A stretch of DNA of 64,000 nucleotides from Dehalococcoidia bacterium (GTDB lineage Bacteria; Chloroflexota; Dehalococcoidia; Lucifugimonadales; UBA2962): positions 8,827 through 72,826 of the forward strand of contig OZ242262.1 of assembly GCA_965207145.1 (NCBI GenBank), read 5' to 3'. A program made the translations under genes and the position numbers. Numbering within the stretch: position 1 is the first letter of the stretch; every line of letters starts with the position of its first letter. Under the pieces are notes generated by a model. It ran no database searches and was not told the DNA's origin. It saw only the letters and a program-made list of their open reading frames with translations. This document shows positions 12,658 through 51,816 of this stretch, piece by piece.

Positions 12658-12667
12658 TTTACTATGC

Positions 12668-12685: not shown

Positions 12686-12896
12686 CTACCCTAATGCAAC
12701 GAGAATGAGTCCAAGATCCACTACCCAGCGGCAAGAATGCGATTTCGGGCCACTTGGTTGGGCCGGTGTCGGTGACGCCATCTTCACGGTGACGGCCAGC
12801 ACGAACGGGTCTTCCCCGGCTCGCGGCGCTGCCGGCAGTTTCCCCCAGAGATTCATCCACGGATTCGCCCCGTTGTCATCGCGCCTCCCCCATGTC

Positions 12897-13485: not shown

Positions 13486-13917
13486 CTAGGTGTCCTGGTG
13501 GCAGTGGGTGCAGAAACCGATGGTGGGCTGAGTCACCCGCACCCCTTGGTGCTCGGTGTGGCAGGCGACGCACATGTGGGCCTCGATGTGCTCCCGTGCA
13601 TCGGCGAAGCGCGGCTCGAGGAAGCGGGAGATCGGGTGCCGGTCGTCAGGCCTCTCGTGGCAGTCCAGACAGGCTGCGTTACCGACATCCTCGGAGCCAA
13701 AACCGATGGTGGACTCCCGCAGGCCCAGCCAGTCGTAGACGTTGGAGTTCAGTTGCTGCGCGGCGGTGCCCGCTACGGCTGAGTGGCATTCCTGGCAGCC
13801 CAATCCCTCGTGGCCAGTGTTCATGGGCCCCTTGGCAACCAGCGCGTTGCGGTCCGGGAATGTGAGAAACGCCACCAAGAGCAGGCCCAGCGCGACGGCC
13901 GACTGCAACTCCGACAT
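13486..13917 (-). CDS. Membrane-anchored tetrahaem c-type cytochrome.
   Basis: 143 aa with an N-terminal hydrophobic helix (AVALGLLLVAFLTF) and four CXXCH motifs: CQECH, CLDCH, CVACH, CTHCH. Confidence 0.8.
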   Translation of the reverse strand: MSELQSAVALGLLLVAFLTFPDRNALVAKGPMNTGHEGLGCQECHSAVAGTAAQQLNSNVYDWLGLRESTIGFGSEDVGNAACLDCHERPDDRHPISRFLEPRFADAREHIEAHMCVACHTEHQGVRVTQPTIGFCTHCHQDT

Positions 13918-24476: not shown

Positions 24477-24736
24477 GCACGGATCTATTCTTGGAGCCGT
24501 GACTCTAGGGTCGGACGCAAGTCCGAGTCCCGCCATCCGATCAACGGTCGACCGAGTGCGATTGCCCCTCTTGGCATGACGCGGCGGTCTCTGCCAATGC
24601 AGATTCCGCTAATGCACCACGTGTGGGGGCGTTACTCCCCATCGCGCCAGGTCTACGCACACGCACACCCAGATTCTCGCTTCAGGCGCCGACTACAATC
24701 AGCCTGCCATCCATATGTTCCAGACAAGGTGCGAGT

Positions 24737-25858
24737 ATGAGAATCGAGACCCTTGCCGTTCACAGCGGCCGACATGTCGACCCGGCCACCGGCGCAGTTA
24801 CCCCACCGATACATATGTCAACTACGTTTCAACGAGGGGTCGACGGCTCATATCCCCAGGGGTACGTCTACGGACGGTCTGACAACCCCACCCGGTCCCA
24901 TTTGGAGGAGTGCATCCGGGACTTGGAAGGTGGAATGGCTGCCGCGGCGTTCTCTTCAGGCTTGGCGGCAATCTCGGCTGTCTTCCAGTCCCTGGCCCCC
25001 GGCGACCACATAGTCGCCCCCAAGGACATCTATCACGGGACGACCCTGCTGCTGCGGGACCGACTGGCCCGTTGGGGCCTCAAGGCCACCTTTGTTGACA
25101 TGACGGTCACTGATAGGGTCCGCGAGGCGATCACACCTGCTACCAAGCTCATCCTCGTAGAGACCCCTTCCAATCCTTTGCTGAAGATCACCGACATCGC
25201 CGCGGTGGCGCAGTTGGCACGTCAGAGAGGAATCGTTTGTGTCTGCGACAACACCTGGGCCACACCTGTGCTGCAGCGGTGCCTGGAGCTAGGAGCGGAC
25301 ATGGCAGTCCACTCGACCACGAAGTACCTCGGCGGCCACGGCGACGTTACCGGGGGAGTAGTGGTCAGCGACGGGAACAACGCCATGTTCGAAGAGATAC
25401 GGGCGATACAGCAAGGCGGCGGGGCTGTCCCGTCTCCTTTCGATTGCTGGCTGATTCTCAGGGGAATACGAACCCTGCCCTACCGCATGCGTGCCCACTC
25501 CGAAAACGCTGCCAGAGTAGCCGCCTTCCTGAACGGCCATCCCCGCGTCCTGAAGGTCTTCTATCCGGGGCTTAGAGCTCATGCCGGACACGACGTCGCA
25601 CGTTGCCAGATGAGCATGTTCGGGGGGATGCTGTCTTTCCGGGTCCGCGGCGGTGAGGAGGCAGCTTTCAGGGTTGCCGCTCGGACTTCCCTGTTCACTC
25701 GAGCTACAAGCCTGGGCAGCTACGAAAGCCTGATCGAGCACCGGGCCTCCATTGAGGACCCTGGCAGTGCTACTCCCACTGACCTGCTGCGAGTGTCGGT
25801 AGGCCTTGAAAACGCCGAAGATCTAGTCTTGGACCTTGAACAGGCCCTAGCCGAATAG
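24737..25858 (+). CDS. PLP-dependent Cys/Met-metabolism enzyme (cystathionine gamma-synthase / gamma-lyase / beta-lyase family).
   Basis: MRIETLAVHSGRHVDPATGAVTPPIHMSTTF... together with the PLP-lysine region HSTTKYLGGHGDVTGG. The ATG at 24737 follows AAGGTG. Confidence 0.85.
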   Translation: MRIETLAVHSGRHVDPATGAVTPPIHMSTTFQRGVDGSYPQGYVYGRSDNPTRSHLEECIRDLEGGMAAAAFSSGLAAISAVFQSLAPGDHIVAPKDIYHGTTLLLRDRLARWGLKATFVDMTVTDRVREAITPATKLILVETPSNPLLKITDIAAVAQLARQRGIVCVCDNTWATPVLQRCLELGADMAVHSTTKYLGGHGDVTGGVVVSDGNNAMFEEIRAIQQGGGAVPSPFDCWLILRGIRTLPYRMRAHSENAARVAAFLNGHPRVLKVFYPGLRAHAGHDVARCQMSMFGGMLSFRVRGGEEAAFRVAARTSLFTRATSLGSYESLIEHRASIEDPGSATPTDLLRVSVGLENAEDLVLDLEQALAE

Positions 25859-26148: not shown

Positions 26149-27315
26149 TCACGGCCGCTGGGAAGTTGGGATCCAGCCGCGCTCCTCGCGCCAGCCTGGG
26201 CCGACGTCAGAGAATCGGCCCAGTCCAAGGGCACTGATGTCTATCCTCGACTCGCCGTAAAGCACCAGGTCGCTTACGGCCTTGCCCGTGGCCGGCGCGA
26301 TGCCGAACCCATGCGCCGACGCCGTGACGACAACGTAGTTGCTCACGCCGTCCGCGATGTCGATGATGGGTAGATAGTCCGGGGCCTGTTCCACCACTCC
26401 GGCCCAGCTTCGGATTACCGGTACGTCCGCCACCCGCGGAAGAAGCTCCGCGAGCCTCCTGGCGATATTCCTGATGAGGGGGGTATTGGGCTTGTGCGGG
26501 TCGGTGACTAGGTCCACGTCGATCCATTCATGCGGGCCTCCCCCAAAGAGTAGATTGCCCCTGGCCGCCTGACGCCCGTATAGACCATTGCCCACAAGGG
26601 CGATGTCGAAGAGCGGTTCGAGAGGGGCGGTTGCCAGGATCTCCACCCTTGCCGGTGCAACGGGAACGTGAATGCCAACCATATCCGCCAGCAGACCTGT
26701 CTGGGGCCCGGCGGCGGCGACCACCATATCGGCCTCAATAGAGCCCGCGGCCGTCTCCACGGATGAGACCCTTTCGCCGACAACCGACATGCCCGTGACG
26801 GCGGTGTTCTGATAGAGTCTGCCCCCCAGATCCTGGAAGGCCCATGCGAATGCCTGGACCGTCCGCTGAGGGTTGGCGTGACCGCCATTGGCGAAGAAAA
26901 GCCCGCCCAATGTTCTCCCCGTGATTTCGGGAATCAGTCCTTGAATCTCCGAAGGGTCGAGCAGTTCTACACTGAGGCCGTGGCGCAGCGCTTCCTCTCT
27001 CTCCGTGTACAGGTCGCCCATCTCCTCTTCACTGACGGCGACCTGGAGCCTGCCCTCGTGTGTGAACTCCGTCGGATAGCCCAGTTCATCGTCCAGCGTC
27101 GGCCATATCTTTAGGGACTCTACCCCCATGGGTATCATCGGAGGCTCGTCGACCCGTTCGCTGATCATTCCGCCGTTTCGCCCGGAGGCCTCGCCGCCCA
27201 CGGTGCCCTTATCGACCACCACGACATCCTTGCCCGCCTTGGCAAGATAGTAGGCCGAGGCCAGGCCCGAAACGCCGGCTCCGATGACGACTACATCTGC
27301 ACTTCTTTCAGGCAT
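26149..27315 (-). CDS. FAD-dependent oxidoreductase, DAO family (SoxB / HcnC / OoxB-like).
   Basis: The N-terminal dinucleotide fold is DVVVIGAGVSGLASAYYLAKAGKDVVVVDKG. 388 aa, typical for the family. Confidence 0.85.
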   Translation of the reverse strand: MPERSADVVVIGAGVSGLASAYYLAKAGKDVVVVDKGTVGGEASGRNGGMISERVDEPPMIPMGVESLKIWPTLDDELGYPTEFTHEGRLQVAVSEEEMGDLYTEREEALRHGLSVELLDPSEIQGLIPEITGRTLGGLFFANGGHANPQRTVQAFAWAFQDLGGRLYQNTAVTGMSVVGERVSSVETAAGSIEADMVVAAAGPQTGLLADMVGIHVPVAPARVEILATAPLEPLFDIALVGNGLYGRQAARGNLLFGGGPHEWIDVDLVTDPHKPNTPLIRNIARRLAELLPRVADVPVIRSWAGVVEQAPDYLPIIDIADGVSNYVVVTASAHGFGIAPATGKAVSDLVLYGESRIDISALGLGRFSDVGPGWREERGWIPTSQRP

Positions 27316-27350
27316 GATCCCACTCCGGTGGCTCGATCCTGAACCGTCCT

Positions 27351-28865
27351 CTACCCCAGCACCTCGTTAGCTGGGCTGAACCATTTGGGCCAGTCCCTTC
27401 GCACCTGATCCGGCTCCTCGTGGGGCCACATCACATTCAGGGGAAGAGGGCGGACGGGAGGACGGTAAGACATGAAGGGGGTATCGGCCAGATCCGCTCC
27501 GGACTCCTCGGCCAGCAGCATGGACACCTGCTCGCGGCAAAGTCGACCCTGGCAATGGCCGGTTCCCACCCGCGTGAGGCGTTTCATCTGGTTCGGGCTA
27601 ACCGGACCGTCTTCCAATAGAGTCCTGAGATTCCGTCGGTTCATTCGCTCCGACTCCCATCCCAGGTATCGCGGAGGCCGCGTGCCTGTGAGGTCGGCGC
27701 AAGTGACCTCCTCGCACCGGCACACGAAGATATCCGGCCCACCTGCCCTTACGAGGGACTGAAGCCAGGACTTCCAGTTTGATCGTGCTTCGATCGGCGC
27801 CCACCGGACCCCGGCTGCCCGCAGGTCGGCCATCCGGGCGAGCGTTTCCTCCTTATCGATAGCCCCGAGAGACCCGGAGGCGGCAATTCCGGCCAGACGG
27901 CCCTGATTCCGGGCTATTTCGGAGTTCAGGGTCATCCCCTCGTGGGAGCCTGCCACATCGCCTGCGACGAATACCTCACCGACGTTGGTCATCATCCTGT
28001 CGTCGTGGACGGGTACGTACCCGCCAAGGTCCGACTCGAAGGAAAGCTCGCAACCCAGAAGACTGAGGAGCTCAACGTTGGGAACGAGGCCTATGGCAAG
28101 GCACACGGTGTCGGTGGGAATAGATTTCTCAGTGCCGGCAACAGGGTCGCAATTCTCGTCGATCTCGACCAGGACGACGGACTCGATCTCACCGTCTCTG
28201 CCGACCGCCCTCCGAACCGTGTGGGAGGTGTACAGCTCTACGCCCCTATCCCGCAACTCCGTCGCGACGGCCTCGTCCCCCCGCACCGAAGACGATACCT
28301 CCACGACGGCGGGAACCTCGATGCCGCCGTCCAACGCCATCCTGGCTGTGTTGAGGCCAAGATTGCCGGAGCCCACGACCACAAGTCGCCGCGAGGACAG
28401 CGCCCCGTAGCGACTCATCAGCGAATGTGCGCCGTTGGCCCCCATGGCACCCGCCAGATCCCATCCCGCAAAGGACATTCCCATGTCCCGCGACCCCGCC
28501 GCCACGATGAGCCGCTCGTACTTGATCAGCCACGATCGCTCGCCGTCGGCCAGCCCAAGCTGCGGCCCGTCGATAACCCTGCTGGTCTCTGAATTGCGGA
28601 AGGCACCCCACACGCACGTCCCCAGCAGGACATCGACGCCGGCGTCTACCGCCTCGCCCATCGCATCGTTGGCTGCGACCACCCTCTCCAGCATCAGGGG
28701 TGCATCTCGCACACCGCCTGTGAAACGCTGGCCGAAGAACTGGGGAACATCCAGCGCCATCATCGCGGTCGACAGGGGATTCTCGTCGACAAGCGTGACC
28801 TGCACTCCGGCACCGGCCGCCTCTATGGCAGCGGCCGTACCCGCTGCTCCCGCTCCCACAACCAC
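27351..28865 (-). CDS. FAD/NAD(P)-binding oxidoreductase with a BFD-like [2Fe-2S] Cys motif (HcnB / OoxA-like partner subunit).
   Basis: Two Rossmann motifs (VVGAGAAGTAAAIEAAGAG and VVVGSGNLGLNTA) plus FVCRCEEVTCADL...GTGHCQGRLC. There is no ATG; the first in-frame start is the GTG at 28865. Confidence 0.8.
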   Translation of the reverse strand: MVVGAGAAGTAAAIEAAGAGVQVTLVDENPLSTAMMALDVPQFFGQRFTGGVRDAPLMLERVVAANDAMGEAVDAGVDVLLGTCVWGAFRNSETSRVIDGPQLGLADGERSWLIKYERLIVAAGSRDMGMSFAGWDLAGAMGANGAHSLMSRYGALSSRRLVVVGSGNLGLNTARMALDGGIEVPAVVEVSSSVRGDEAVATELRDRGVELYTSHTVRRAVGRDGEIESVVLVEIDENCDPVAGTEKSIPTDTVCLAIGLVPNVELLSLLGCELSFESDLGGYVPVHDDRMMTNVGEVFVAGDVAGSHEGMTLNSEIARNQGRLAGIAASGSLGAIDKEETLARMADLRAAGVRWAPIEARSNWKSWLQSLVRAGGPDIFVCRCEEVTCADLTGTRPPRYLGWESERMNRRNLRTLLEDGPVSPNQMKRLTRVGTGHCQGRLCREQVSMLLAEESGADLADTPFMSYRPPVRPLPLNVMWPHEEPDQVRRDWPKWFSPANEVLG

Positions 28866-28950
28866 AAGTGGCTTGGATTCGATGAGAGGTACCTCTTGTC
28901 GGGCTGAAGGCCTTGCTTACGTCACACGCGCTTGTGTCTGCGTAGACCCC

Positions 28951-30024
28951 TTACAAACCAGCTGGTGAGCCTCTTCGCGGAGATGAGACCCGTTCCGGCA
29001 GCGCCCCGCCCAGGGCCCTGGTGTAGTCGACGCCGAATCCACAGCATGTGCCGATGATCTGGGCTCCCATTCCGACCCAGTCGACGGCCTCCCGCCTCAA
29101 CCCCTCGGCGGTTTCTTCGTTGGCGACCATGCTGTCCTGCCAGGCCTCGAGATAGTCTTCCCTGCCCGCATCCGGATAGACGACTATGGGCCCGGCCCAC
29201 CGGTCGAGGACAACGTCAAGCGCCGCCGTGGTCTCCGATAACCTGCTGTGGAACACGCCGAGCACGTCTGGGTTCAGCGCCGTAATCTCATCGATCCCTT
29301 CGGCCAGGGTCATGTCATAGTCGACAGTCCGCCAACTCGAAGTGAACATCGGCATCCCCATACCGGTGCTGTAGTAACGGTCATCTCCCAGGCTCAACCT
29401 CACCGTCTGTCCGTCACCTGCCACCGATGCCGTAAAGCCCACCCAGACCGGCAGTCCCGTGGCCATAGCCGCTTCAGTGGCAATCAACCTCGACTCGTTG
29501 TCAGCCCACATGTTCTCCATCAGAAAGAAGTCAACACCGGACTCTGCAAGGACATCCGCCTGCTCGTCGACATAGGTCCTCAGCTCGTCTGCCGACAGGC
29601 TGGCGCCATAGCCGAAGCCGGTGCCTCCCAGGAGTGTTCCGGTCCTGCGGTCGCGAACGGGGATGCGGCACGAGATGGACCCGGCAATGTACACAGGCCT
29701 GTCTACGGCGGCCCGATCTATGGCCTCAAGCGCCGCGTCCACCGCGCGCACATTGATCTCCCTGACTAACTCCTGGTACCCGGACGCCTCCAGAGCGGGA
29801 CGGAGGGTGTTGAAGGTATTGGTGGTGATGATATCGGCCCCGGCCCGTATGTAACGCTCGTGCATCTGACGCACCGTGGCCGGATGCGTGTAGTTGCCCG
29901 GACCGCACCACGCGGCCGGATGCATCGGCACGCCCATAGCCTGTAGCTCAGTCCCGATTGCGCCGTCCAGAACGATAACTTCACCCTGATCTATTCGACC
30001 TCTCAGCTCGTCGTATTTGGCCAT
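28951..30024 (-). CDS. Homocysteine S-methyltransferase family protein.
   Basis: VIVLDGAIGTELQ...ADIITTNTF...IIGTCCGFG, with the zinc-binding Cys pattern of the S-methyl_trans family. Confidence 0.85.
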   Translation of the reverse strand: MAKYDELRGRIDQGEVIVLDGAIGTELQAMGVPMHPAAWCGPGNYTHPATVRQMHERYIRAGADIITTNTFNTLRPALEASGYQELVREINVRAVDAALEAIDRAAVDRPVYIAGSISCRIPVRDRRTGTLLGGTGFGYGASLSADELRTYVDEQADVLAESGVDFFLMENMWADNESRLIATEAAMATGLPVWVGFTASVAGDGQTVRLSLGDDRYYSTGMGMPMFTSSWRTVDYDMTLAEGIDEITALNPDVLGVFHSRLSETTAALDVVLDRWAGPIVVYPDAGREDYLEAWQDSMVANEETAEGLRREAVDWVGMGAQIIGTCCGFGVDYTRALGGALPERVSSPRRGSPAGL

Positions 30025-41059: not shown

Positions 41060-43087
41060 ATGACTGCGTCAAAGGGTGAAACGACGATCCAATCGCTCAG
41101 CTTGACTGAAGAACTCCTCCTGATGCTCCTCAACGAGGAGAGTGGTTATTTCCACCAGGTGCCCGGATGGGACCTTAACTGCGCCGTCGTCGGTGCCGTG
41201 CTAGCGGAACTTTCACTCAGGTCTCGAATTGACACAGATCTTGAATCACTTTTTGTCGTTGACGAGACAGAAACGGGTAGACCCACACTGGACTCTATCC
41301 TGAAGGAAATCGCAGCCGAACCGGTCCAAAGGACCACGCAGTACTGGATCGAGAGGCTGGCGCCCCGCGCGGAGTCAATCATCGATTGGACTCTTGATCA
41401 CCTGGTTGACCTGAAGATTCTGGAACACCACGACGGGGAGTTCTGGACGCTGTCCCGTACTACATGGCAAGAGGGGATGTTTGGCAACTCGTCGGAGGGG
41501 ACCGCAGTCCAGTTTGTAAAGACCCGTATCAGCAACGCGATCTTCAATAACGAGATCCCTGACCCGAGGGATGTCATCATCATCTGCCTGATCAACACGT
41601 GCGACGTCTTCCGTTTCATGTTCCAGCTTGATGACGAGGCGGAGGAGCGTATTCAGTTCATCTGCAAGATGGACCTGATCGGCCGCTCCATAGCTGAAGC
41701 GGTGGCCCACAATCTGGCGGGCCCGCTGTTCCGACGTTCGGCCCTGACCAAGAAGATCCCTACCGCTTCCTTGCGCAAGATCCTGTTCAATCCTCACATC
41801 CGCAAGGGCAACATACCGGCAGTGTTCGCGGACCTTGCGCACGAGTATGGCCCGGTGTTTCAGATCCGACCTCCGTTTTCCGAGCCCATGATCGTCTTGG
41901 CGGGCTCCGACACAAATCAGTGGGTCCATCGCCGAGGTCGAATGTACCTGAGAGCGAGGGACTATTTCTCGGACTTTGAGAAAGTCTATGGCGCCGCCGG
42001 GGTGCTGCCCGCCCTTGACGGCGCCGACCATTTCCGACTGCGCAAGTCCTTATCGGCGGCCTATTCCCGCAAGAGACTGGCGGGACAGATAGACGACCTT
42101 TACGGACATGCGCGAAGGCATATGGCGCAGTGGACAGTTGGGGAGGTCTACCCAGCGACCGGCATGAGCCGGCAAATGATCAACGCTCAGATCTCGCCTT
42201 TCATGGTGGGAGTTGAGACTCAGGACATCATTGACGACCTGCTCAAGTTCAAGGAACGGGCGCTCAGCGTCCACATTATGAAGATCATGCCGAAGTTCAT
42301 GCTGAAAACTCCCGGCATGAGGCGCCGGGCGAAGTTCATCGAAGCGTTGCTCGAGCGCGTCTACAGCGTGCATACCCCCGCCCAGCGAGCCGGACGGCCC
42401 CTAGACCTGGTGGACGACTATCTGAGCCTGCATGCGAGCGATCCGCAGTTCATACCCGAATCTAACCTCAGGTTCGCCTTTACCGCGGCGCTGGTGGCCA
42501 GCGCATACCTCGGCGATGCGTTTAGCTTCACCCTGTATGCCATGGCCTCGCAGCCGGAGGTCCACGCGAGAATCCAGGCCGAGGCCGACGCCCTGTTTGG
42601 CAACGGCGATCCGAAGCCCGAGGACTTCAGCCCGTCCACGATTGATGTCACGCACCGCTTCATGATGGAGTGCATGCGCATGTACCCGGTCGTTCCGATG
42701 TCCATTCGAAACGTGATGAATTCCTGTGTGGTAGAGGACTACGAACTGCCGGTGGGTTCGAGGGTCATCATCGCCCAGACGTCCACGCATTACATGGAGG
42801 ATGTCTTTCCAGATCCCTTCAAGTTCGATATCGACCGCTATCTGCCCCCGCGCAATGAGCACCTCAGCCCCGGGTACGCACCCTACGGGCTGGGTACCCA
42901 CACATGCCTCGGCTCCCGGTGGATGGAGTTGCAACTGGCCGTCAACCTGCTGATGGTTGCGCACTACTTCACGCTTGAGGTGCTGCCGAAGAACTTCGAG
43001 TTCCGGTTTAACCCCATACCGTCGATGAAGCCGAGCAGCAGGCTGAAGTTCCGCATAACCGGGAAAAGGCGCGAACTGAGCGCTTAA
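41060..43087 (+). CDS. Fusion protein: N-terminal GPP34/GOLPH3-family domain plus C-terminal cytochrome P450.
   Basis: The N-terminal region reads LSLTEELLLMLLNEESGYFHQVPGWDLNCAVVGAVLAELSLRSRI, the GPP34 pattern. The C-terminal region has ExxR (ECMRMYP) and the haem loop APYGLGTHTCLGSRWMELQ. It is a single uninterrupted 675-aa ORF. Confidence 0.85.
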   Translation: MTASKGETTIQSLSLTEELLLMLLNEESGYFHQVPGWDLNCAVVGAVLAELSLRSRIDTDLESLFVVDETETGRPTLDSILKEIAAEPVQRTTQYWIERLAPRAESIIDWTLDHLVDLKILEHHDGEFWTLSRTTWQEGMFGNSSEGTAVQFVKTRISNAIFNNEIPDPRDVIIICLINTCDVFRFMFQLDDEAEERIQFICKMDLIGRSIAEAVAHNLAGPLFRRSALTKKIPTASLRKILFNPHIRKGNIPAVFADLAHEYGPVFQIRPPFSEPMIVLAGSDTNQWVHRRGRMYLRARDYFSDFEKVYGAAGVLPALDGADHFRLRKSLSAAYSRKRLAGQIDDLYGHARRHMAQWTVGEVYPATGMSRQMINAQISPFMVGVETQDIIDDLLKFKERALSVHIMKIMPKFMLKTPGMRRRAKFIEALLERVYSVHTPAQRAGRPLDLVDDYLSLHASDPQFIPESNLRFAFTAALVASAYLGDAFSFTLYAMASQPEVHARIQAEADALFGNGDPKPEDFSPSTIDVTHRFMMECMRMYPVVPMSIRNVMNSCVVEDYELPVGSRVIIAQTSTHYMEDVFPDPFKFDIDRYLPPRNEHLSPGYAPYGLGTHTCLGSRWMELQLAVNLLMVAHYFTLEVLPKNFEFRFNPIPSMKPSSRLKFRITGKRRELSA

Positions 43088-43116
43088 CGCACCACTGGAT
43101 CGCGCCCGACAGGCTG

Positions 43117-44172
43117 CTAAGGAGAGGGGCTAGGTCTAAGAGGCTTGCGCGCCAGGAAACAGTAAAGTGGCGTGAAGATCCCGGCCCTGCCGCCCGCGAC
43201 ATAGGCGTTTGCAGTCCTATCCAGCAGCCTGACGACGTCCGCAGAGCCCTTGGGAAACACGCCCAGCACCTCGGCCAGCCTGCATACCCCGACAAAAGCC
43301 TTGCGGCCCAGCGGAATCCTGTAGAGGGCGCCGCGCAGTGCTCCGTCCGGGGCTTCCATGGGTCGATACCACGGGGTGATCGAACCGTTCTCCCCGACGC
43401 CGCGGTCAATCCCCTCGATGACCTCGAATCCCGCCGCTACGAGCGACCGGTTCACCTCATCCGTCGTGGCGATTTCCTTGAGCGCTATGCCGTGCATCAG
43501 GTCCTGCTTTTTGGCCAGGTGCCCAGCATCGCTGGGGTCGAACCTGTCCGTCATGCACATCTCCTGACCCCAGAAGAGAGCTCCGGGCTTCAGCACGCGG
43601 CATATCTCGGCGAACGCTCCCACCTTGTCCGGGGCATGGCAGGTCGATTCGATCGCGTAACCGCGGTCGAACGTGTCGTCCGCGATTGCGCCCATGTCCA
43701 TGAAGCTGCACTCGAGGTAGTCGACCATGTAGTCGACCCCCGCCTCGGCGTTCAACGATTTCGCCCTGTCAAGCTGGATCTTATTGTTGTTGACCCCTAC
43801 GACCCTGGCGCCGACCTCACGGACTACACGGCGCATGGGGCCGCCTATCCCACAACCGACATCGATCACCGTCATGCCCTCGCTCATCTCCAGCTTGTCG
43901 ATCATCAGTCGCTGATGCCTGAGCTTGGACTCCTCCAGGCTCTCCCCGGGCGATAGCGGCGCGAAGTGGAGGGATTCGCCCCAGCCGAACACCATGAATT
44001 CGCCGCAAAGGTCATAGTACTCCTTGACGGTTGCTGCGTGGTCGTAGCCCGGCCCGCTAACCCCCTGCGCGGACGCCCTGTCGAGCCATCCATCAAATCG
44101 CTGCACGCGACGGGCTACGGGGGATCCCAGGTACGCGGCCTCCAGCCCTTTGCGTAGATTGCCGAGTTGCAT
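43117..44172 (-). CDS. Sterol C-24 methyltransferase (ERG6/SMT1-family) homologue.
   Basis: YYDLCGEFMVFGWGESLHFA (SMT region I), VIDVGCGIGGP (SAM motif I), YAIESTCHAP (SMT region II), VLKPGALF, EMCMTDRFDP, and the C-terminal TPWYRPME...GRKAF...LGVFPKGS...AGGRAGIFTPLYCFLARKP (Sterol_MT_C-like). Confidence 0.8.
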   Translation of the reverse strand: MQLGNLRKGLEAAYLGSPVARRVQRFDGWLDRASAQGVSGPGYDHAATVKEYYDLCGEFMVFGWGESLHFAPLSPGESLEESKLRHQRLMIDKLEMSEGMTVIDVGCGIGGPMRRVVREVGARVVGVNNNKIQLDRAKSLNAEAGVDYMVDYLECSFMDMGAIADDTFDRGYAIESTCHAPDKVGAFAEICRVLKPGALFWGQEMCMTDRFDPSDAGHLAKKQDLMHGIALKEIATTDEVNRSLVAAGFEVIEGIDRGVGENGSITPWYRPMEAPDGALRGALYRIPLGRKAFVGVCRLAEVLGVFPKGSADVVRLLDRTANAYVAGGRAGIFTPLYCFLARKPLRPSPSP

Positions 44173-44364
44173 GAGTTCCTTTCAGAACAGCTGGGCCGAG
44201 CGGACTATTCGCCTGCGACAGGGGTACCTTCGCGGGAGATTACTACCCTAGCTGCTGTCATGGTGCCGCTGCCCCAACACAGTAGCGGAGAAACGGTCAC
44301 GTTTGTACAGGGAGATTCTATCTAATTGCAGGTAGGCCCCGTCGATGGACTCACCTGCGCCCAT

Positions 44365-44595
44365 CTTTCGTTTCAATCGCTGTGACGCTGCCATATACGC
44401 TTGAGCCTGCAATCCAGGCAGATCTGTCGAAGCCCACGAGCCCACGATTCCGGAGAAAGAACGAGGGGCTCTGCTTCCATCACACGTTCATCATCTGCTC
44501 TCCACCAGTTCATAACCGGATCCTTGGCGCTAGGAGCTAGAGTGATGCTACGCACTGAAGGGTTCTACGCTCACTCACCAGCGGCCCATCACTGC
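44365..44595 (+). repeat. Copy B of the dispersed intergenic element (copy A at 25885-26105).
   Basis: See copy A. It lies between the two methyltransferase genes. Confidence 0.5.
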
Positions 44596-44709
44596 GGGCC
44601 GTTCGACCGGGCCTGAGTCCAGTCGGGGATTACCGGGATCTGTCGCACTCGTCACGCCGGCCAAGGCCGGTATCCAGGGGCCAGGCAGATCCGCGCAGGA
44701 TGAACCAAT

Positions 44710-45549
44710 CTAGTCGCCCTTCACCCCCACTGCATGCGCCCTCGCCGTTGACAGGTAGGCGTCAGGGTGCTTTGCCCACTCGCGGATGCCGCTGACCATC
44801 GACTCTAGCTCAGAGTCAGTGGTCAGGCCCAGTTCAATCGACTCCTGGAACAGCGGGACGTTCTCAATCCACGCGATGTAGATCTCGGCCGACGCGCTCG
44901 CGGCGTCCTGCCCCAACACGTGGGACATATTGGTCTCGAACTCGATGACGTCGAAACCGGCCTCACGCATGTGGGACCTCAGGAAGCGCCCTCGGTTAAG
45001 CGATCCGCCGATTCGCGTAAAGCCGCCCTCGAACAGCTCGAAGAACCTGCTCAGCTCAGGACACTCCGGCACGATGAACGGGAACGACCAGTCGGTACGA
45101 GCGACCGCTCCGACGCCGCCGGGTTTCGTGACCCTGAGTATCTCCCTCAGCGCACGGACGGGATCGGACAGGTGCTCGGTGACCGCGCTGGAAAACACGA
45201 CATCGAACTCGCCGTCTTCGTATGGCAGGTCGTAGATGTCCGCTACCTGGAACGCGAGGTTCTCCAGTCCGCTGTCGGCGGCTAGCCGGTTGGCCCGCTC
45301 GATCATCGTCGGCTCGATGTCGATGCCCACGACCCGGCCGGGCGCCACGATCTCCGCGAAACTGAGCGCGATCGGCCCCGGCCCGCAGCCGCAGTCGAGT
45401 ACGCTCTTACCCTCAGACAGGTGCGGCACTAGGAAGTCGGCGAGCCGGACTGTGTCACGGTTAGCGTAGCCCCGCTGAACTCTGGCCGAGTCGTATCCGT
45501 AGAATGGTCTTCCTCCGAACTGCGGAGTCTGTGGTACGTGTGCCGTCAT
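44710..45549 (-). CDS. Class I SAM-dependent methyltransferase (Methyltransf_11/25-like).
   Basis: VLDCGCGPGPIALSFAEIV...VVGIDIE...FDVVFSSAVTEHL...VTKPGG. Confidence 0.85.
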   Translation of the reverse strand: MTAHVPQTPQFGGRPFYGYDSARVQRGYANRDTVRLADFLVPHLSEGKSVLDCGCGPGPIALSFAEIVAPGRVVGIDIEPTMIERANRLAADSGLENLAFQVADIYDLPYEDGEFDVVFSSAVTEHLSDPVRALREILRVTKPGGVGAVARTDWSFPFIVPECPELSRFFELFEGGFTRIGGSLNRGRFLRSHMREAGFDVIEFETNMSHVLGQDAASASAEIYIAWIENVPLFQESIELGLTTDSELESMVSGIREWAKHPDAYLSTARAHAVGVKGD

Positions 45550-45736
45550 AATCGTGGTCCTATTGCTGCCTCACGGCTTCTCGTATATTTGAGCGCGGTG
45601 CCTGTTGGACTCGGTCTCGGTGCGCCCGCCTGACTGATGCTACCCTGATACAGGCTGATTTGGAGGATGGGTTCTTCGATAGGTCGAGTTACGGCGTGCT
45701 CAAGGACAACATGGGCGGCGTCTGACTCTTTGGTGG

Positions 45737-46306
45737 GTGGAGGTACGATCGGTGGTGAACGCTAATCGCGGCTGTCGCTTAAGCATCGCCGGGAAAGTAC
45801 TGTTCCCGCTGCTAGCCGGGACCATCGTCGCTATCCTGTCCTGCACCGGCGAGCCGGGCAGTTCTTCGACACAGATGACCGTGGTTCCATCCATCACCCC
45901 GGTCCCTACAGTCCCCAAGGATGTTCAGGGGTGCGCCGTAGGCCCAAACGCGGAGTGCCCGGGCGCCAGATTCGATGGACAGGACTTCAGCGAGATTCCT
46001 TCAGTCCAGGGTGGTGGCTCCAGGGGCCGGGAAGCGGCCGATTTCTCCGGGTCTACCCTCGAGGGAGCCAGCTTCGTGGGCTCCAATCTCGAAGGGGTGT
46101 TTTTTGAGGGGGCGAACCTGCGCGACGTGGACTTTCAGGATGCCAACCTCAGAGGAGCCTCCTTCTATCAGGCCGACCTGTCAGGGTCCGACTTCACCGG
46201 TGCAGACCTCGAGAACGCTGACATGGAGGATGCGATATTGCAGGGAGTCATTTACTGTCGCACCAAGACTCCTGATGGCTCCGTTAGTGACAGGGATTGT
46301 CCCTGA
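45737..46306 (+). CDS. Pentapeptide-repeat lipoprotein.
   Basis: The lipobox reads VAILSC. It is followed by ADFSGSTLEGASFVGSNLEGVFFEGANLRDVDFQDANLRGASFYQADLSGSDFTGADLENADMEDAIL. Confidence 0.8.
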   Translation: MEVRSVVNANRGCRLSIAGKVLFPLLAGTIVAILSCTGEPGSSSTQMTVVPSITPVPTVPKDVQGCAVGPNAECPGARFDGQDFSEIPSVQGGGSRGREAADFSGSTLEGASFVGSNLEGVFFEGANLRDVDFQDANLRGASFYQADLSGSDFTGADLENADMEDAILQGVIYCRTKTPDGSVSDRDCP

Positions 46307-46579
46307 GTTCCATAGAGCGTGAGGGCGGAGACGGGTGAATCGCCATGAGCAATCTCTGGCGGAGGCCAGAGGTGCACGGTCGAGTCTGGCTCGAGCGATG
46401 CCGACGGATTAACGAGAAAGGCCACCGCTAGTGAACGAGTTTCCTCGTCGCTGCACGGGGAATCCACGCGGTTGTGCGTTCTGCGGGAGCAGACTCCTGC
46501 ATGAGAGAATGCAGACCATATGCTTGGCTTAGAGTACGAGTGCTCCAGAGGTTGGAGATGAGGATCACGGTTTTTTTCC

Positions 46580-46939
46580 TTGATTGCGGTGGGGCTAACC
46601 GTGCTGGCGATAGCGGCGTGCGGAACGGAGGAATCTCGCCCTCAGAGGCTATACGACTTTTACCAACACGAGAGAGAATCTAATCCCACCCGATTGGCCG
46701 CGCGAATTGCGGCCGAAGAAATGCGCAAGTTTTCGGGCCACATAACGAACATTGACGGCCCGAAGGTTCAATTCCACCCTGACGATCGGATATCGCAACG
46801 GGATCGGTATATCGAGTGCCGGTTCGCTGATCTGGAATCCGTTTCGCAACTGGACACGGGCCAGTACATCACTTTGTTCGGAAGACTCGTCCGCGCCGAC
46901 CACATAATCGTCTTCGACGATTGCACCGTCGCCCAGTGA
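46580..46939 (+). CDS. Hypothetical lipoprotein. The start is uncertain; see the T7-tract finding.
   Basis: The TTG start gives LIAVGLTVLAIAACGTEES (lipobox IAAC). An ATG at 46558 with an AGAGG RBS would supply a proper MRITVF n-region if the T7 run at 46571-46577 were T6. Confidence 0.55.
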   Translation: MIAVGLTVLAIAACGTEESRPQRLYDFYQHERESNPTRLAARIAAEEMRKFSGHITNIDGPKVQFHPDDRISQRDRYIECRFADLESVSQLDTGQYITLFGRLVRADHIIVFDDCTVAQ

Positions 46940-47225
46940 CAGACCTTCCCTTCCTTCAGTTGATATAGCCGCGATCCGGCGTCAGTGGCCCCAGGTCGAT
47001 CATTGGCGGTGGGTCCGATTGACCACGTCGCGGCCTGACGATTCCCTGAGGCCAGACACATCGCCGGATTCGCCGGCCAAAGGGCACGGCCTGGGCATCA
47101 ACGACCCGCCACCCGGCCACAGACGGTGGCGCCAATGCCTGACCGTCGGTTGGTATGGAAACTATCAACGCCACCTGTTACCCTCGCTGCTCAGCAACGA
47201 GCATGGTGAAGGACACATAAAGGTC

Positions 47226-47876
47226 GTGTTGCGCACCCTGACTGGCAGACCGGCACTGCTTGCTCTGGCCACGTGTTTTTCTGTGGCCGCTCTGCTCGTC
47301 GGCTGTGGAGGGGAGACTTCCGGGACAGAGAGCCCTACCTCCCGGCCGGTTTCCACACCTACAGTCACGACCATCTCGGAGGAAGCCCAACAGCCTGAGC
47401 CAACGGCCGTTCCAACGACACCGCCTACCCAAATGGCGCTGGAGGTCGGGCATAAGGCGGGACAGAAAGCCCCGGACTTCATGCTGACCACCGTCGAAGG
47501 TGAGCAGGTCAGCCTGAACAGCTTTAGTGGTCGCCCACTACTCCTCTACTTCTACACCACCTGGTGACCAACCTGCCGTGCCTCGTTGAGGCACCTTAAG
47601 GAAGTTCAACCCGAATACGCGGATCGCGTGGGAATTCTTGCGGTGAACATAGACCCGCTGGAGACCGCCGAACAGATCCTGGCCTACAAGCAATCCGAAG
47701 GGTTCGTGTGGCCAATGACCGTGGCTGATGTGCAGGTTGTAAGGAACTACAACGTCACCCGCCAGGCCGCCTACGTCACTCTCGATTCAGACGGCGTCGT
47801 TTCGACCAGCGTCACCTACGGTAGTGAGACCGCTGAGGATTGGCGAGAGCTTTTCGAAGCCCTGCTGGATTCCTGA
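47226..47876 (+). CDS. TlpA/ResA-like thiol-disulfide oxidoreductase lipoprotein with an in-frame UGA at the first redox Cys position (candidate selenoprotein, UxxC).
   Basis: ORFs 47019..47567 and 47586..47876 are in the same frame, separated only by the TGA at 47565-47567. The joined sequence is APDFMLTTVEGEQVSLNSFSGRPLLLYFYTTW-U-PTCRASLRHLKEVQPEYADRVGILAVNID..., so the UGA sits exactly where the WCxxC Cys is expected. The GTG at 47226 gives the lipoprotein signal ...AALLVGC. Confidence 0.75.
47578..47594 (+). other. SECIS-like hairpin 10 nt downstream of the UGA.
   Basis: GTGCCTC-GTT-GAGGCAC is a perfect 7-bp stem with an apical loop starting GU. The loop begins 18 nt after the UGA. Confidence 0.6.
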
Positions 47877-48161
47877 TCACAGTTGCCGCCCCCGTAGTCT
47901 GGCCACGCCTGCGGCCCCTTTACGGTGTCAGATTGGGTGGGTAGGCCGCCCCGATCCCTTTTGCAGCGATTAATCGCCTACACCAGGCGAACACCTAGCC
48001 TCCGATCGGGAGTTCGTTTTTCCTGTTGTTGTCGGGCCTATTGCAGGAACAGCCGCTCGAAACGCCGCATGAGCCTGACTTTGGCGGTCGGCACTGCCAC
48101 TTTGCCACCGATAGCCGCTGCAGGGCAGGCAGTGCCGGTCCCGCACGGCCCAGGACCGTAT

Positions 48162-49217
48162 TTAGGCGGCCGGGGTGTCAGAATCGCTGGGGTCGGGATA
48201 AAACTGGGCGCAGTAGGCTCTAAATGGCATGAGCTCACCGTCGGAACGGCATAGGCGCGGGCGAGACTGATATTGCTTGCGACTCCAGATGAGCACGTCC
48301 TGTAGCACATCCTTTTCTTGCTGGGCGGCCATGAACTTGTTCATGATGGGCGCGCGCATCCCCACCGGGAGAAATCCGAGGCCCAGTATCCACCGCCTGG
48401 GGTTACGAATCTCCCGCACCTGACCTACCAAAGACATGTCGATCAGCGTGCCGTCGACGGGCGTCGCCAGTATCCACAGGCGCAGGTCCATGCCGATGGA
48501 GTGCTCGCGGATCTCCACGTACGAGTAGCCCAGTCCATAGATTCGCGTCCTCGCCGATATATTGAACGTTAGGCTCGCAATGCCTGCGATCGAGCGCGTT
48601 CTGGTGAAGTCGAAATCGCTTTCGAGAAGGTGTCCGTCCACGGACACGGGGTCGACGCGGTTTACGCCGTCGTAACCGTGCACGTACCGCAGGTGCGCCA
48701 GGTCAACCGAATTCTCCGTAGTCTCCTGAGGATGCCCGGGAAAACGGATGGTCTTGATATCAAGATCGCTCCAACCAGTTTGATCAGGCGACTCCGCGGG
48801 CAGGCTCCACTGGGGCGGCCTTCCCCGGATTCCCCACCACGCGAAGATCAACCCGGCTATTTCCCGTGTTTCGAAGACCCGCAGCCTTGCGAATTTCGGC
48901 GGAGGGGAAAAGGGAGTGGCAACGCATTGGCCCGTGGCATCGAACTCATAGCCATGAAAGGGACACACGAGCCGACCATCGCACACCCTCCCCCCTGCCG
49001 CAGGCCCCAGATCGGCACCAAGGTGAGGGCAAAAGGCCCCGGATACGCAGACTCGCCCGTCTTCATCGCACCAGACTATGATGCTCTCGCCCATCCAGGT
49101 CTTTTGGATGAGCTTCTCCCTCGAGATGGCCCGACGACTTGTAACGAAATACCAGCCCTCAGGGAAAGGGGAAGCTAGCGGGGCGTCAGCGGGCGCCTTA
49201 TAACGGGTTGCTATCGT
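48162..49217 (-). CDS. Rieske [2Fe-2S] non-haem-iron oxygenase (KshA / cholesterol-desaturase-type architecture). The N-terminus extends upstream of the first ATG.
   Basis: CPHLGADL...CPFHGYEF (Rieske) and ENSVDLAHLRYVHG (mononuclear iron). The reading frame stays open 41 codons upstream of the ATG at 49094 and encodes ...PFPEGWYFVTSRRAISREKLIQKTW, the first strands of the Rieske domain. Confidence 0.8.
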   Translation of the reverse strand, partial: TIATRYKAPADAPLASPFPEGWYFVTSRRAISREKLIQKTWMGESIIVWCDEDGRVCVSGAFCPHLGADLGPAAGGRVCDGRLVCPFHGYEFDATGQCVATPFSPPPKFARLRVFETREIAGLIFAWWGIRGRPPQWSLPAESPDQTGWSDLDIKTIRFPGHPQETTENSVDLAHLRYVHGYDGVNRVDPVSVDGHLLESDFDFTRTRSIAGIASLTFNISARTRIYGLGYSYVEIREHSIGMDLRLWILATPVDGTLIDMSLVGQVREIRNPRRWILGLGFLPVGMRAPIMNKFMAAQQEKDVLQDVLIWSRKQYQSRPRLCRSDGELMPFRAYCAQFYPDPSDSDTPAA

Positions 49218-49329
49218 TCAACACTCCTCGTGCGACTAACAGAGTAGCGCATAGCCGGTCATACGCGGCCGCCGCGGGCAAGGCGCAACTGGCGTTCGCT
49301 CAAGTGACGAAGGCCCCAAACCCGTCGAT

Positions 49330-51816
49330 CTAAGGAGTGCTCGGCTGATCCTGACCGTGACGCCGGTGCACATCCTCAATGGCCTCGTCAAGGTCGCTCC
49401 ACATGCGTTCGACCATGGAGCGCAGCCGCATGTTCTGGTACGCGCCCCAGACGACCATCGCGGGCAGCACCACCAGGATGGAGACTATGAGGGAGTAGGC
49501 GATGGTGATGGTCGCCGTGATACCGAACTGCTGTGACGCAAGCAGGGGCGAGGCTATCAGCACCCCGAATCCGAACGCCGTCGTCAGCGCCGAGCCCATC
49601 AGCGCCGAGCCCGTGGTAGCCAGGGTCCGCACAGCCGCTTGCTCCGGGTTGCGCAGACGGGCGAACTCCTCCCGGTAGCGATGAATCACGTGGATGGTGT
49701 AGTCCACCCCGATTCCGATCGACAGCGCCGTGATGATGGAGGTGACCAGGGTGTAGGGAATGTCCAGCAGCGCCATCGTACCCAGCACGCTGATGAGGAC
49801 GAGCACTATCGGCCCCACCGCAACGAGCCCGAGCATGGGCTGGCGCAGCGTCACCCAGAAGAAGATGGTGAGGATGCCCAGTGCAACCGCTACGGTGACA
49901 CTAATCGACTCCGTCTGCCGTCCGGTGATCTGGTCCGTGACCGCGATGGCGACGATGCTGCCCGAGGTCGCCGTGATGGCGCTGTCGTCGCCGGACCAGA
50001 GCGCCTCTATCTCCTCCTGTATCATCCCCGTTCCCTTGGGATCGCCCTGGTAGGTGGGGAACTGCAGCAGCAGCGTATCGACCCCGTCCGGATCGTTAAC
50101 GAGGAAGCGCGCCAGGTGGGGTTCCAGGTCGACAAGCCTGTCGATGACCTCCTGCATCAGTTCTCGATCGAGGCCCACCCCAACGGAGGCTTCCCGGTAG
50201 AGAGCCGCAAGCTCGGGGTCGTAGTTGTCTCCGGGCTCTCCTGTGTCTTCTACCCAGTCGCTCAGTGCCGAGTAGTACGAAGCCTGGATCGGTCCTGCCG
50301 CCTGGGGAGGACGGCGCGACTCGTCCTCAAATGCGGCCGTGAGATCCTGAAGATTCAGGAGCGTGCGTGTCTCGGTAGCCTCGGCCTTGACCACTACGCT
50401 GGTGAGCTCCGTAGAGCCTCCCACGGCTGCTTCGAGCGTTTCCATGTCCTCCAGCACGCTCCCACCCCGGGGCAGGATGTCGCGGATGCTGAATTCGGAC
50501 TTCAGTCCCGTTGCGGCGAACCCGAGCCCGACGGTCACCGCTATGACGCAGACCAGATAGGGCGCGGGCCAGCGTGTTACCGATCGCCCCAGCCGCTCCG
50601 CCAGCAGCGGGATGCCGGGCAATGCGTTAGAGATCGGTCGCGCGGGCGGCAAGGTGCCTCGTGCCTCGCGCCGCCGGTCTATGATGGTTCGTCCGGCCGG
50701 GATCAGGGTCAGCATCACTATCAGGCTCAATCCCACGCCCAAGCCCGCGACGATGCCGAAGTCGCCAATCACCCCTATCGGGGAGAACAGGCTCGCCAGC
50801 AGGCTCACAATTGTCGTGACGGCGGCCAGGGTTAGCGGGATCGTGACATTGCGCAGCCCCGTGCGGACGGCCGTCAGGACAGGCGCGCCTGCGGTTCGCT
50901 GCTCGCGGTAGTGGGACACGGCCTGAATGGCATAGTCCACCGTGAGGCTGATGAGGATCACGGGCACCATGGCGGTGAGCGAGCTGGGAGGGCCAATCGC
51001 TCCCAGCGCCTCCGGCCCGAGCCAGCCTTCCGCCCCGACAACCCAGATTATCGAGAGGATGAGGCCGAGCAGCGTTAACAGCGTATCCGAAATGGCGCGC
51101 GTAAAGAGCAGAAGCAGCGCTGCGATCAGGAGCAGCGCCAGGCCTATGAGCGGTGCCATACCCGACTCGGTGGCCTCCTTGTACTCGTCCTCGATGATCA
51201 CCGGGGATAGGCTGCTCACGTCAAGGGGGCCGTCATCCGCTGTAGCGAGGTCGCTGATCGCTCGTTCGGCGTCCTCGATTCGCTCGTCACCGGTGTCGAT
51301 CAGGCTTATGGTGGCGATCCCAACCGGCTTGCCGTCCTCGTCCTCTCCGGTCAGCGCGGAGAATGCCTCCTGCAACTGCGGCGTCCCGACCACGGAGTCG
51401 ATCTCTGCCTGCGTGACCGAATCGAAGCCGTCGACCCGGAGCACAGACTTGACCAGCGAAGTCGGGGCGGCGACGGGATCACCTGCAACCAGTAGCTCAC
51501 GAACGCCCTGGTCACTCTCGATCTCACCTAGCAGCGCGTCCATCTGAGAGAGCCCGTCGGGAGTGAGCACATCTCCGCGGAACACGAGCGTGGCAACGCT
51601 CACATCGCCCGAGTCGGCGAACGACGCCTCTATCTCCTGCGTCGCCGCAGCAACGGCGTGCCCGGGCGGAAGGAACGCCAGGTCGGCTCCTTCCGTGGGA
51701 GGGGCGCGCATCGTCACGCCCGCGCCAAGCAAGACTGTTACGGCGAGAAGGACTAGGAGCGTGACGTACGGGCGGACCGTGATCAGCCAGCTCAGCCTAT
51801 CGAGTACCTGGCCCAT
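49330..51816 (-). CDS. MMPL/RND-superfamily transporter (HpnN-like architecture).
   Basis: 828 aa with two blocks of about 6 TM helices, each preceded by a large soluble loop. The sequence texture is typical of MMPL proteins (…LSIIWVVGAEGWLG…, …GIGVDYTIHVIHRYREE…). Confidence 0.85.
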   Translation of the reverse strand: MGQVLDRLSWLITVRPYVTLLVLLAVTVLLGAGVTMRAPPTEGADLAFLPPGHAVAAATQEIEASFADSGDVSVATLVFRGDVLTPDGLSQMDALLGEIESDQGVRELLVAGDPVAAPTSLVKSVLRVDGFDSVTQAEIDSVVGTPQLQEAFSALTGEDEDGKPVGIATISLIDTGDERIEDAERAISDLATADDGPLDVSSLSPVIIEDEYKEATESGMAPLIGLALLLIAALLLLFTRAISDTLLTLLGLILSIIWVVGAEGWLGPEALGAIGPPSSLTAMVPVILISLTVDYAIQAVSHYREQRTAGAPVLTAVRTGLRNVTIPLTLAAVTTIVSLLASLFSPIGVIGDFGIVAGLGVGLSLIVMLTLIPAGRTIIDRRREARGTLPPARPISNALPGIPLLAERLGRSVTRWPAPYLVCVIAVTVGLGFAATGLKSEFSIRDILPRGGSVLEDMETLEAAVGGSTELTSVVVKAEATETRTLLNLQDLTAAFEDESRRPPQAAGPIQASYYSALSDWVEDTGEPGDNYDPELAALYREASVGVGLDRELMQEVIDRLVDLEPHLARFLVNDPDGVDTLLLQFPTYQGDPKGTGMIQEEIEALWSGDDSAITATSGSIVAIAVTDQITGRQTESISVTVAVALGILTIFFWVTLRQPMLGLVAVGPIVLVLISVLGTMALLDIPYTLVTSIITALSIGIGVDYTIHVIHRYREEFARLRNPEQAAVRTLATTGSALMGSALTTAFGFGVLIASPLLASQQFGITATITIAYSLIVSILVVLPAMVVWGAYQNMRLRSMVERMWSDLDEAIEDVHRRHGQDQPSTP

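Follow-up and report, generated by a model that had tools for sequence, protein, structure and literature searches.

An In-Frame TGA in a Putative Gene for a Selenocysteine-Containing, Membrane-Tethered Thiol-Disulfide Oxidoreductase of a Dehalococcoidia Bacterium

The window analyzed here is a stretch of 64,000 nucleotides from a Dehalococcoidia bacterium (assembly GCA_965207145.1, contig OZ242262.1, positions 8,827 to 72,826), and the subject of this study is a segment of its forward strand, 47226-47876, which the list of open reading frames (ORFs) cuts in two at an in-frame TGA. It is highly likely that this segment is one gene for a selenocysteine (Sec)-containing, membrane-tethered thiol-disulfide oxidoreductase. 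The segment is almost certainly one real gene, and comparison with its homologs indicated that its internal UGA is very probably read as Sec. A preliminary description of the window, made from the letters alone, had proposed a TlpA-like selenoprotein at this place. That interpretation was supported by a TGA conserved among homologs, by a Cys/Sec pair at the same column and by a conserved hairpin of the selenocysteine insertion sequence (SECIS) type.

Reading Frame and Position of the TGA

The translation of 47226-47876 (+) gave a single frame with only one internal stop, the TGA at 47565-47567 (...LLLYFYTTW-stop-PTCRASLRHLKEV...LFEALLDS-stop). The sequence flanking this codon reads ...GRPLLLYFYTTW-stop-PTCRASLRHLKEVQPEY...WRELFEALLDS-stop. 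The ORF list divided the gene into 47019-47567 and 47586-47876, which lie in the identical frame. When Cys was written for the stop, Pfam recovered one domain across it (AhpC-TSA, 8e-19; Redoxin, 2e-18). Thus, the translation and the domain that crosses the stop bore out the earlier proposal that the two ORFs are one gene in one frame. The TGA also falls, as had been proposed, at the catalytic position of the family motif, W-[TGA]-P-T-C standing against the W-C-x-x-C of relatives.

The gene was co-linear and ungapped with 20 close homologs. A start near 47226 would provide a canonical signal peptide, as in the homologs beginning MKIPTFKSRWLPLAAG... The 96-aa product of the downstream ORF recurred as the same artefact in public gene sets, namely as P0003 and as genes in loci L002 and L003. 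A global reassignment of TGA was considered and rejected; because TGA terminated 17 of the 43 long open frames in the window, the code is not reassigned.

Homologs and Conservation of the TGA

The Cys-substituted protein was used as the query of a protein search over 5.8 billion sequences. Seven of the eight nearest matches (45-90% identity) terminated at ...LYFY[TA][TR]W, and the remaining one was the C-terminal half, called as a gene of its own. The nearest full-length relatives were ~38% identical and carried TTWCPYC. DNA was then obtained for seven metagenome loci and for 13 species-representative Dehalococcoidia genomes of GTDB, which covered 57-96% amino acid identity; locus L011 was left out as redundant, since its domain sequence was identical to that of L001. 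Chromosomes carrying the gene include OZ220697.1, OZ244723.1, OZ240206.1, OZ244792.1, and OY763929.1, of which OZ220697.1 is closest to the window (~88-92% nucleotide identity). In a scan of metagenome contigs all relatives found were distant (at most ~40% identity), a handful of very short matches excepted.

The 96-residue C-terminal part, used as the query of an exhaustive HMMER search, returned 132 cluster representatives (P0155-P0286). About half of them were proteins of ~77-100 aa that began at one identical residue, and the others were full-length with WCP[VTIF]C. That implied that the short proteins would be fragments of further genes split at the same place. Four divergent fragment clusters led to five metagenome loci (L117-L121, 36-47% identity), and all five had the TGA at the same codon, 18 nt ahead of the called ORF. 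With these included, the TGA occupied the same codon in 25 of 25 fetched homologous loci. The preliminary description had suggested an alignment at the stop column, and this alignment gave TGA in every locus and Cys in the full-length relatives.

In the close clade, 102 ungapped codons followed the TGA up to a common stop in all loci except L005. The common C-terminus of L005 was lost at ~3400-3486 (...LFERRRSAFCAC...), probably through a frameshift or an assembly error near the 3' end. The ratio of non-synonymous to synonymous substitution rates (dN/dS) was 0.12-0.29 downstream of the TGA vs. 0.03-0.26 upstream, and because of the downstream values the part after the TGA is judged to be translated. 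The six residues from the TGA to the first possible restart codon were conserved as P-x-C-R-[AS]-x; therefore, the downstream half does not appear to be an independent gene. Homologs in which the family ends at this codon, or in which the downstream part stands alone, would have spoken against the earlier proposal. What was found in the homologs was conservation of P-x-C-R-[AS]-x and of the downstream frame.

The homologs formed a Cys/Sec pair at the TGA column, where full-length proteins carried WCP[YVTIF]C (TTWCPYC in P0009-P0014; WCPVC in P0160, P0184, and P0190). Within the close Dehalococcoidia clade the Sec codon, the Pro, and the Cys were invariant, and the residue between Pro and Cys was T, V, or S. 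The more distant Sec forms had the motif U-[PS]-x-C. A two-domain relative was found in locus L122 (2501-3640, on a 2.3-Mb contig), with WCPIC in domain 1 and W-TGA-PSC in domain 2. Cys and Sec versions of one domain are therefore placed within one mRNA in this locus.

Hairpin Downstream of the TGA

A perfect 7-bp hairpin, reported in the preliminary description and present in the sequence, starts 10 nt past the UGA, inside the codons for Arg-Ala-Ser-Leu-Arg-His. It is composed of GTGCCTC (47578-47584), GTT (47585-47587), and GAGGCAC (47588-47594). The spacing from the UGA to the loop was 17 nt, so that the loop G is the 18th nucleotide after the UGA, and the hairpin folded alone gave -10.1 kcal/mol. 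The published consensus of bacterial SECIS elements comprises a loop of 3-9 nt, a stem of 4-16 bp, a G in the first two loop positions, a spacing of 16-37 nt between UGA and loop, and a minimum free energy (MFE) of -7.5 kcal/mol or lower (PMC13188914). Compared with these published values, the GUU loop, the 7-bp stem, the 17-nt spacing, and the -10.1 kcal/mol all agreed with the consensus, which confirmed the earlier statement that a GU-starting loop at 18 nt lies within the bacterial rules.

By itself, the hairpin is weak to modest evidence. Among the 1894 TGA trinucleotides of the window, 19 (~1%) precede a perfect hairpin of the same geometry and a stem of 7 bp or more, and the fold z-score of the 66-nt context was only -1.5. 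It is the conservation, and not the hairpin as such, that raised it above chance. The hairpin core GCCTCGTTGAGGC was invariant save for one pairing-preserving A-to-G in L013, and it showed no synonymous change. The 20 close homologs offered 27 codon columns with an invariant residue and at least fourfold degeneracy, of which 24 varied synonymously; the three that never varied were GCC, TCG, and TTG, which follow one another in the stem-loop. Two non-synonymous changes were seen in the stem, U-A to C-G in L002 and U-A to U-G in L013, and both kept the pairing.

The distant members had other stems (GCUCCGC/GCGGAGC, GCGCCGC/GCGGCGC, and GCGCCG..CGGCGC) and retained the GUU loop. Their encoded residues varied (RASLRH, RSALRS, RAELRR, and RAALRR) while the pairing and the GUU were kept, and the Cys forms kept neither the xLR pattern nor the hairpin. 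In an alignment of 17 sequences, three pairs changed on both sides; the covariation score was 0.30 vs. 0.10 ± 0.03 for shuffled alignments, none of 500 of which reached it, and 89% of the cells were paired vs. 30-50% when the partners were slid. Locus L122 provided an internal control: the hairpin GCGCCGC-GUU-GCGGCGC followed the TGA of domain 2, and the corresponding stretch past the TGC of domain 1 contained none. On this comparative evidence, the synonymous sites, the covariation, and the L122 control show selection on the hairpin as an RNA. An extended lower stem (CCU/AGG), taken from the MFE fold of the single sequence, was rejected, as its columns varied without the pairing being kept. 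No other conserved structure was found within 60 nt past the UGA.

Domain, Fold and Predicted Export of the Protein

The nearest solved sequences were ResA and TlpA-type oxidoreductases (4nmu, 1st9, 1jfu, and 2b1k), at 1e-14. The structural comparison used the AlphaFold model of the Cys homolog P0160, whose domain had a pLDDT (predicted local distance difference test) of 96-98. This model superposed on ResA with a template modeling (TM) score of 0.86-0.92 and a root mean square deviation of 1.3-1.6 Å. It also matched Etrx2, SdbA, StoA, DsbE/DsbF, and CcmG, all of them ahead of the peroxiredoxin AhpE. Where helix 1 starts, the W-C-x-x-C active site takes the form W-U-P-T-C, with the proposed Sec first.

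The preliminary description had called the protein TlpA/ResA-type, and this stood for the fold and the motif; the ResA, TlpA, and DsbE cut-offs were not reached and the cis-proline was absent. The best NCBIfam match was ResA, with 69 bits against a cut-off of 170; TlpA scored 37 (cut-off 230), DsbE 26 (123), and StoA 43 (210), so that none of these four models reached its cut-off. Because the scores were far under the NCBIfam cut-offs, the protein is not regarded as a ResA or TlpA equivalog. Assignment to the peroxiredoxins was also rejected: the pattern PxxxTxxC was absent, since L-Y-F-Y-T-T-W-U has Thr at -3 but Leu, not Pro, at -7. AhpC-TSA of Pfam was matched (68 bits), yet the ResA-type structures were closer than AhpE.

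The N-terminus matches the bacterial lipobox [LVI][ASTVI][GAS]C, as a pattern only. In nearly all homologs a hydrophobic stretch was followed by a lipobox-like L/F-x-[GAS]-C, in the forms LAGC, LSGC, FAGC, LISC, and LAAC. The linker behind it was highly variable in length and sequence, the lipobox Cys lying 67 to 218 residues before the Sec across homologs. The gene neighborhoods differed between loci, and none of the fetched loci had genes for cytochrome c maturation, Sco, or CcdA.

Probable Selenocysteine Usage in the Lineage

The preliminary description had listed no sel gene in the window, and this was confirmed. ARAGORN found no tRNA and Rfam no match in the window, E. coli SelA and SelD as tblastn queries had no match there or at any fetched locus, and Pfam on 40 ORFs of the window gave no SelA, SelB, or SelD domain. 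ARAGORN on the 20 fetched loci found no tRNA-Sec. The SelA query is identical to PDB 8uzw; in a protein database search with it, the best 120 of 8000 scored candidates were all enterobacterial.

Two Dehalococcoidia metagenome-assembled genomes (MAGs) rank among the top ten selenoprotein-rich bacteria of BSepDB, with 49 and 46 selenoprotein genes, and one of them follows the isolate naming scheme of the gene-carrying genomes found here (PMC13326102). An OsmC-like gene adjoins the TlpA-like gene in L015 (~1660-2085, minus strand, TGA at 1938) and in L016 (~10511-10936, minus strand, TGA at 10789). It has an in-frame TGA at the catalytic Cys (...ELLLSALGT-U-TAMT), and its Pfam OsmC match (1.6e-18) crosses the TGA. 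A weak match to the NCBIfam model "OsmC-related (seleno)protein" was also observed. The OsmC-like gene of these two loci is thus a second candidate selenoprotein gene. Because of the selenoprotein counts in BSepDB and of this adjoining gene with an in-frame TGA, the lineage appears to use Sec. A codon-score scan for other genes with in-frame TGA in the window and the 20 loci returned for the most part noise in the form of antisense frames and of adjacent genes. The scan recovered the OsmC-like candidate only and no further gene with an in-frame TGA in the window.

Alternative Explanations

Several observations weigh against reading 47226-47876 as a gene that decodes Sec for a TlpA-like enzyme. 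Neither the window nor the ~400 kb of flanks fetched yielded selA, selB, selD, or tRNA-Sec, although their absence from the window is uninformative for a genome of ~3 Mb. The hairpin is small (a stem of 5-7 bp plus a triloop), its core alone reaches only -7.3 to -7.4 kcal/mol in some homologs, and no conserved extended lower stem was found among the homologs. The covariation is limited to a handful of divergent sequences, possibly of shared ancestry, and the close clade shows just one compensatory and one wobble change. The start codon is provisional, and the frame is open upstream as far as the TTG at 47019. Ala occupies the cis-Pro column, where HMMER aligns NVTRQAAYVTLD with GVGPLPTSFLID of ResA, a placement by alignment only. 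The multiple alignment likewise gave no cis-Pro, and the wider subfamily has SQ[AS][ST]K or T-x-Q-[AS] there. Since the cis-proline is missing, catalytic details may differ from those of TlpA/ResA.

The UGA might be read through without Sec, with Trp, Cys, or another residue inserted by a near-cognate or suppressor tRNA or by some other recoding. The Sec machinery was found neither in the window nor in the fetched flanks, the hairpin is short, and the inserted residue is not decidable from sequence alone. However, the UGA replaces precisely the redox-active Cys of CxxC, a classic Cys/Sec pair; the hairpin has bacterial SECIS geometry and a G-first loop; elsewhere in the window TGA serves as a normal stop; a richness in selenoproteins is documented for Dehalococcoidia MAGs; and Trp in the place of the nucleophile would destroy the redox site. 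Read-through of this kind is therefore improbable. Could the TGA instead be a true stop, which would leave a pseudogene, or an N-terminal lipoprotein fragment followed by an independent 96-aa protein from the TTG at 47586? Every public gene call retrieved annotates the gene so, and the TTG is available. But the TGA was kept in the 25 loci down to ~36% identity over the C-terminal half with no other disruption, the six codons from the TGA to the TTG were conserved as protein (P-x-C-R-[AS]-x), a single Pfam domain crosses the TGA, and the downstream dN/dS stayed at 0.12-0.29. In addition, each half taken alone would be an incomplete thioredoxin fold, and the active site would be missing from the first. 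Because the TGA, the downstream frame, and the P-x-C-R residues are conserved and the dN/dS is low, it is very unlikely that the locus is a pseudogene, that the TGA is a true stop, or that there are two separate genes.

It could further be proposed that the gene does encode a selenoprotein and that the hairpin at 47578-47594 is not its functional SECIS, having been kept for the CRASLR motif or for mRNA stability. In BSepDB, 12.6% of the bacterial selenoprotein genes are without a canonical SECIS, the stem here is short, and binding by SelB is a prediction. Against this, the synonymous sites are frozen exactly at the stem-loop codons, the distant members encode other residues and retain the pairing and the GUU, the Cys forms are without the xLR pattern and the hairpin, and the 60 nt past the UGA hold no other conserved structure. 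We therefore give this explanation very little credence, and Sec insertion directed by the hairpin is the preferred reading.

Proposed Mechanism

According to the preferred reading, the hairpin would act as a bacterial SECIS that binds SelB-GTP-Sec-tRNA(Sec) and delivers it to the ribosomal A site, so that the UGA would be decoded as Sec. The full-length pre-protein would then be exported and lipidated at Cys27, and the Pro/Thr-rich tether would hold the protein at the outer surface of the cytoplasmic membrane. There, the selenolate of Sec114 may attack disulfides or oxidized sulfur in exported client proteins. A selenenylsulfide would form with Cys117, and a CcdA/DsbD-type membrane electron shuttle would re-reduce it. 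In this scheme the decoding step is strongly supported by the comparative evidence, and export is supported by the conserved pattern of the predicted signal peptide. For the chemistry and the reductant, we infer the steps by analogy with the ResA/TlpA family.

Features and Neighboring Genes

The features of the gene and of the sterol-type genes around it are given in Table 1.

Table 1. Features of the putative selenoprotein gene and of the surrounding sterol-type genes, in window positions
Feature	Position	Strand	Remarks
Whole coding sequence of the putative selenoprotein	47226-47876	+	216 codons plus stop TGA 47874-47876; start GTG 47226 provisional
Predicted lipoprotein signal peptide	47226-47306	+	R3, R8, hydrophobic stretch, lipobox L-V-G-C, Cys27 at 47304-47306
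Pro/Thr/Ser/Glu-rich flexible linker	47307-47432	+	Composition from the translation
Thioredoxin-fold redoxin domain, ResA/TlpA-like	47454-47810	+	Pfam Redoxin residues 77-195 and AhpC-TSA 79-190, both across the TGA
In-frame UGA, proposed Sec codon (residue 114)	47565-47567	+	TGA in all 25 homologous loci
Putative redox motif U-P-T-C	47565-47576	+	Resolving Cys117 at 47574-47576
Bacterial SECIS-type hairpin	47578-47594	+	7-bp stem GUGCCUC/GAGGCAC, loop GUU 47585-47587
Spurious downstream ORF, 96 aa	47586-47876	+	TTG start within the hairpin; gene-caller product
GPP34 and cytochrome P450 fusion	41060-43087		
Sterol methyltransferase	43117-44172	-	Sterol_MT_C domain
Rieske/KshA-like oxygenase	48162-49094	-	
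MMPL transporter	49330-51816	-	Sterol-sensing domain

The gene lies within a group of sterol-type genes at 41060-51816 of the window. In L002, an ERG4/ERG24-type sterol reductase (10823-11962) stands directly after the selenoprotein gene. This gene content suggests that sterols may be synthesized or modified in a Dehalococcoidia MAG. The flanks in L001 and L002 contained cadherin-like, fibronectin-III, and collagen-repeat proteins, a sulfatase, a 3180-aa polyketide synthase, and many transposases, a content that we take to give the impression of a host-associated (sponge-type) Chloroflexota genome.

Other parts of the window showed features of their own. The region 1-3838 (to ~6000) had 71% G+C and a strongly negative AT skew. 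It comprised 11 tandem copies of a 339-nt unit with 67% match. Both strands of the repeat region have long open frames, and the plus-strand ORFs had no Pfam match. This region is probably a large repetitive surface protein. Six consecutive ORFs of 177-732 aa at 6967-13782 (+) had no Pfam match at 1e-5. The genes at 26149-30024 (-) and 24623-25858 (+) resemble those for subunits of sarcosine oxidase (DAO; Pyr_redox_2 with SO_alpha_A3), for a homocysteine S-methyltransferase, and for a Cys/Met pyridoxal phosphate enzyme, and they look like genes of methylated-amine and methionine metabolism.

Significance and Comparison with Known Systems

The practical point of this analysis is an annotation error. 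Every public gene call retrieved for the clade splits the gene in two; because of that, and because about half of the 132 representatives are fragments, the family is systematically mis-annotated. The gene would add a predicted surface-tethered selenoenzyme to the selenoprotein-rich Dehalococcoidia. Its very small, well-conserved SECIS, together with the Cys/Sec control in L122, could serve the study of SelB recognition beyond E. coli, while knowledge of Sec decoding itself is unchanged. A more speculative view, which we hold only tentatively and think rather doubtful, is that the proteins may constitute a distinct, undescribed subfamily of exported TlpA-like lipoproteins. Such a subfamily would have lost the cis-Pro loop and switched freely between Cys and Sec, even inside a single two-domain protein, with Sec fixed throughout a host-associated or marine Dehalococcoidia clade and with its own minimal SECIS (a stem of 5-7 bp and a GUU triloop). 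If this is true, the gene would provide a compact model in which to study how selenoproteins are exported, together with a SelB-SECIS pair specific to the lineage.

Thioredoxin-fold selenoproteins with a UxxC motif have reportedly been catalogued since 2004-2008. They are known from Geobacter and from the Sargasso Sea and Global Ocean Sampling (GOS) metagenomes (Table 1 of PMC13188914; PMC9312934), and the preliminary description was right to cite marine metagenomes as a source (PMC13188914, PMC9312934). The present gene shares with them the thioredoxin-fold domain (PF00578 and PF08534 as top matches), Sec as the first residue of UxxC, and a SECIS within the coding sequence after the UGA. In contrast, the proteins of this clade are putative lipoproteins with a long Pro/Thr tether, and the families are likened by domain and motif only. 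The NCBIfam selenoprotein models redoxin_TUGYCR, WAxxUGC_long, SelL_rel_redox, and Rcas_1661 scored 17-24 bits against cut-offs of 100-300. By its domain and motif, the predicted product thus fits the known UxxC thioredoxin-fold selenoproteins, and it matches no curated selenoprotein-specific model.

ResA (Bacillus), TlpA (Bradyrhizobium), and CcmG/DsbE (E. coli) are extracytoplasmic reductases in the maturation of cytochrome c and copper centers, and E. coli CcmG carries WCPTC within WCPTCRA. These enzymes gave the best solved-structure matches, and the gene has in common with them the motif W-[C/U]-P-T-C-R-A and a predicted membrane anchor outside the cytoplasm. The differences are Sec for Cys, Ala for the cis-Pro, and, at all of the loci, a lack of conserved linkage to genes for cytochrome c maturation, Sco, or CcdA. 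This clade has T-R-Q-A-A in the place of the cis-Pro loop of TlpA-like proteins.

Etrx1/Etrx2 of Streptococcus pneumoniae and SdbA of S. gordonii resemble the predicted protein in their lipoprotein anchor and surface TlpA-like domain (matches 4hqz, 2yp6, and 5um7), whereas they are Cys enzymes of Firmicutes. The Etrx proteins work with the neighboring MsrAB2 and CcdA; no such partner genes (MsrAB2, CcdA) adjoin the gene here. The Rcas_1661 family (NF041057; "DsbG-like", Chloroflexi) is a different family, whose model matched the signal and linker region with only 17 bits (cut-off 190). It is nevertheless the same in being an exported, lipid-anchored UxxC thioredoxin-fold selenoprotein, and it sets a precedent in the Chloroflexota for the kind of protein proposed here.

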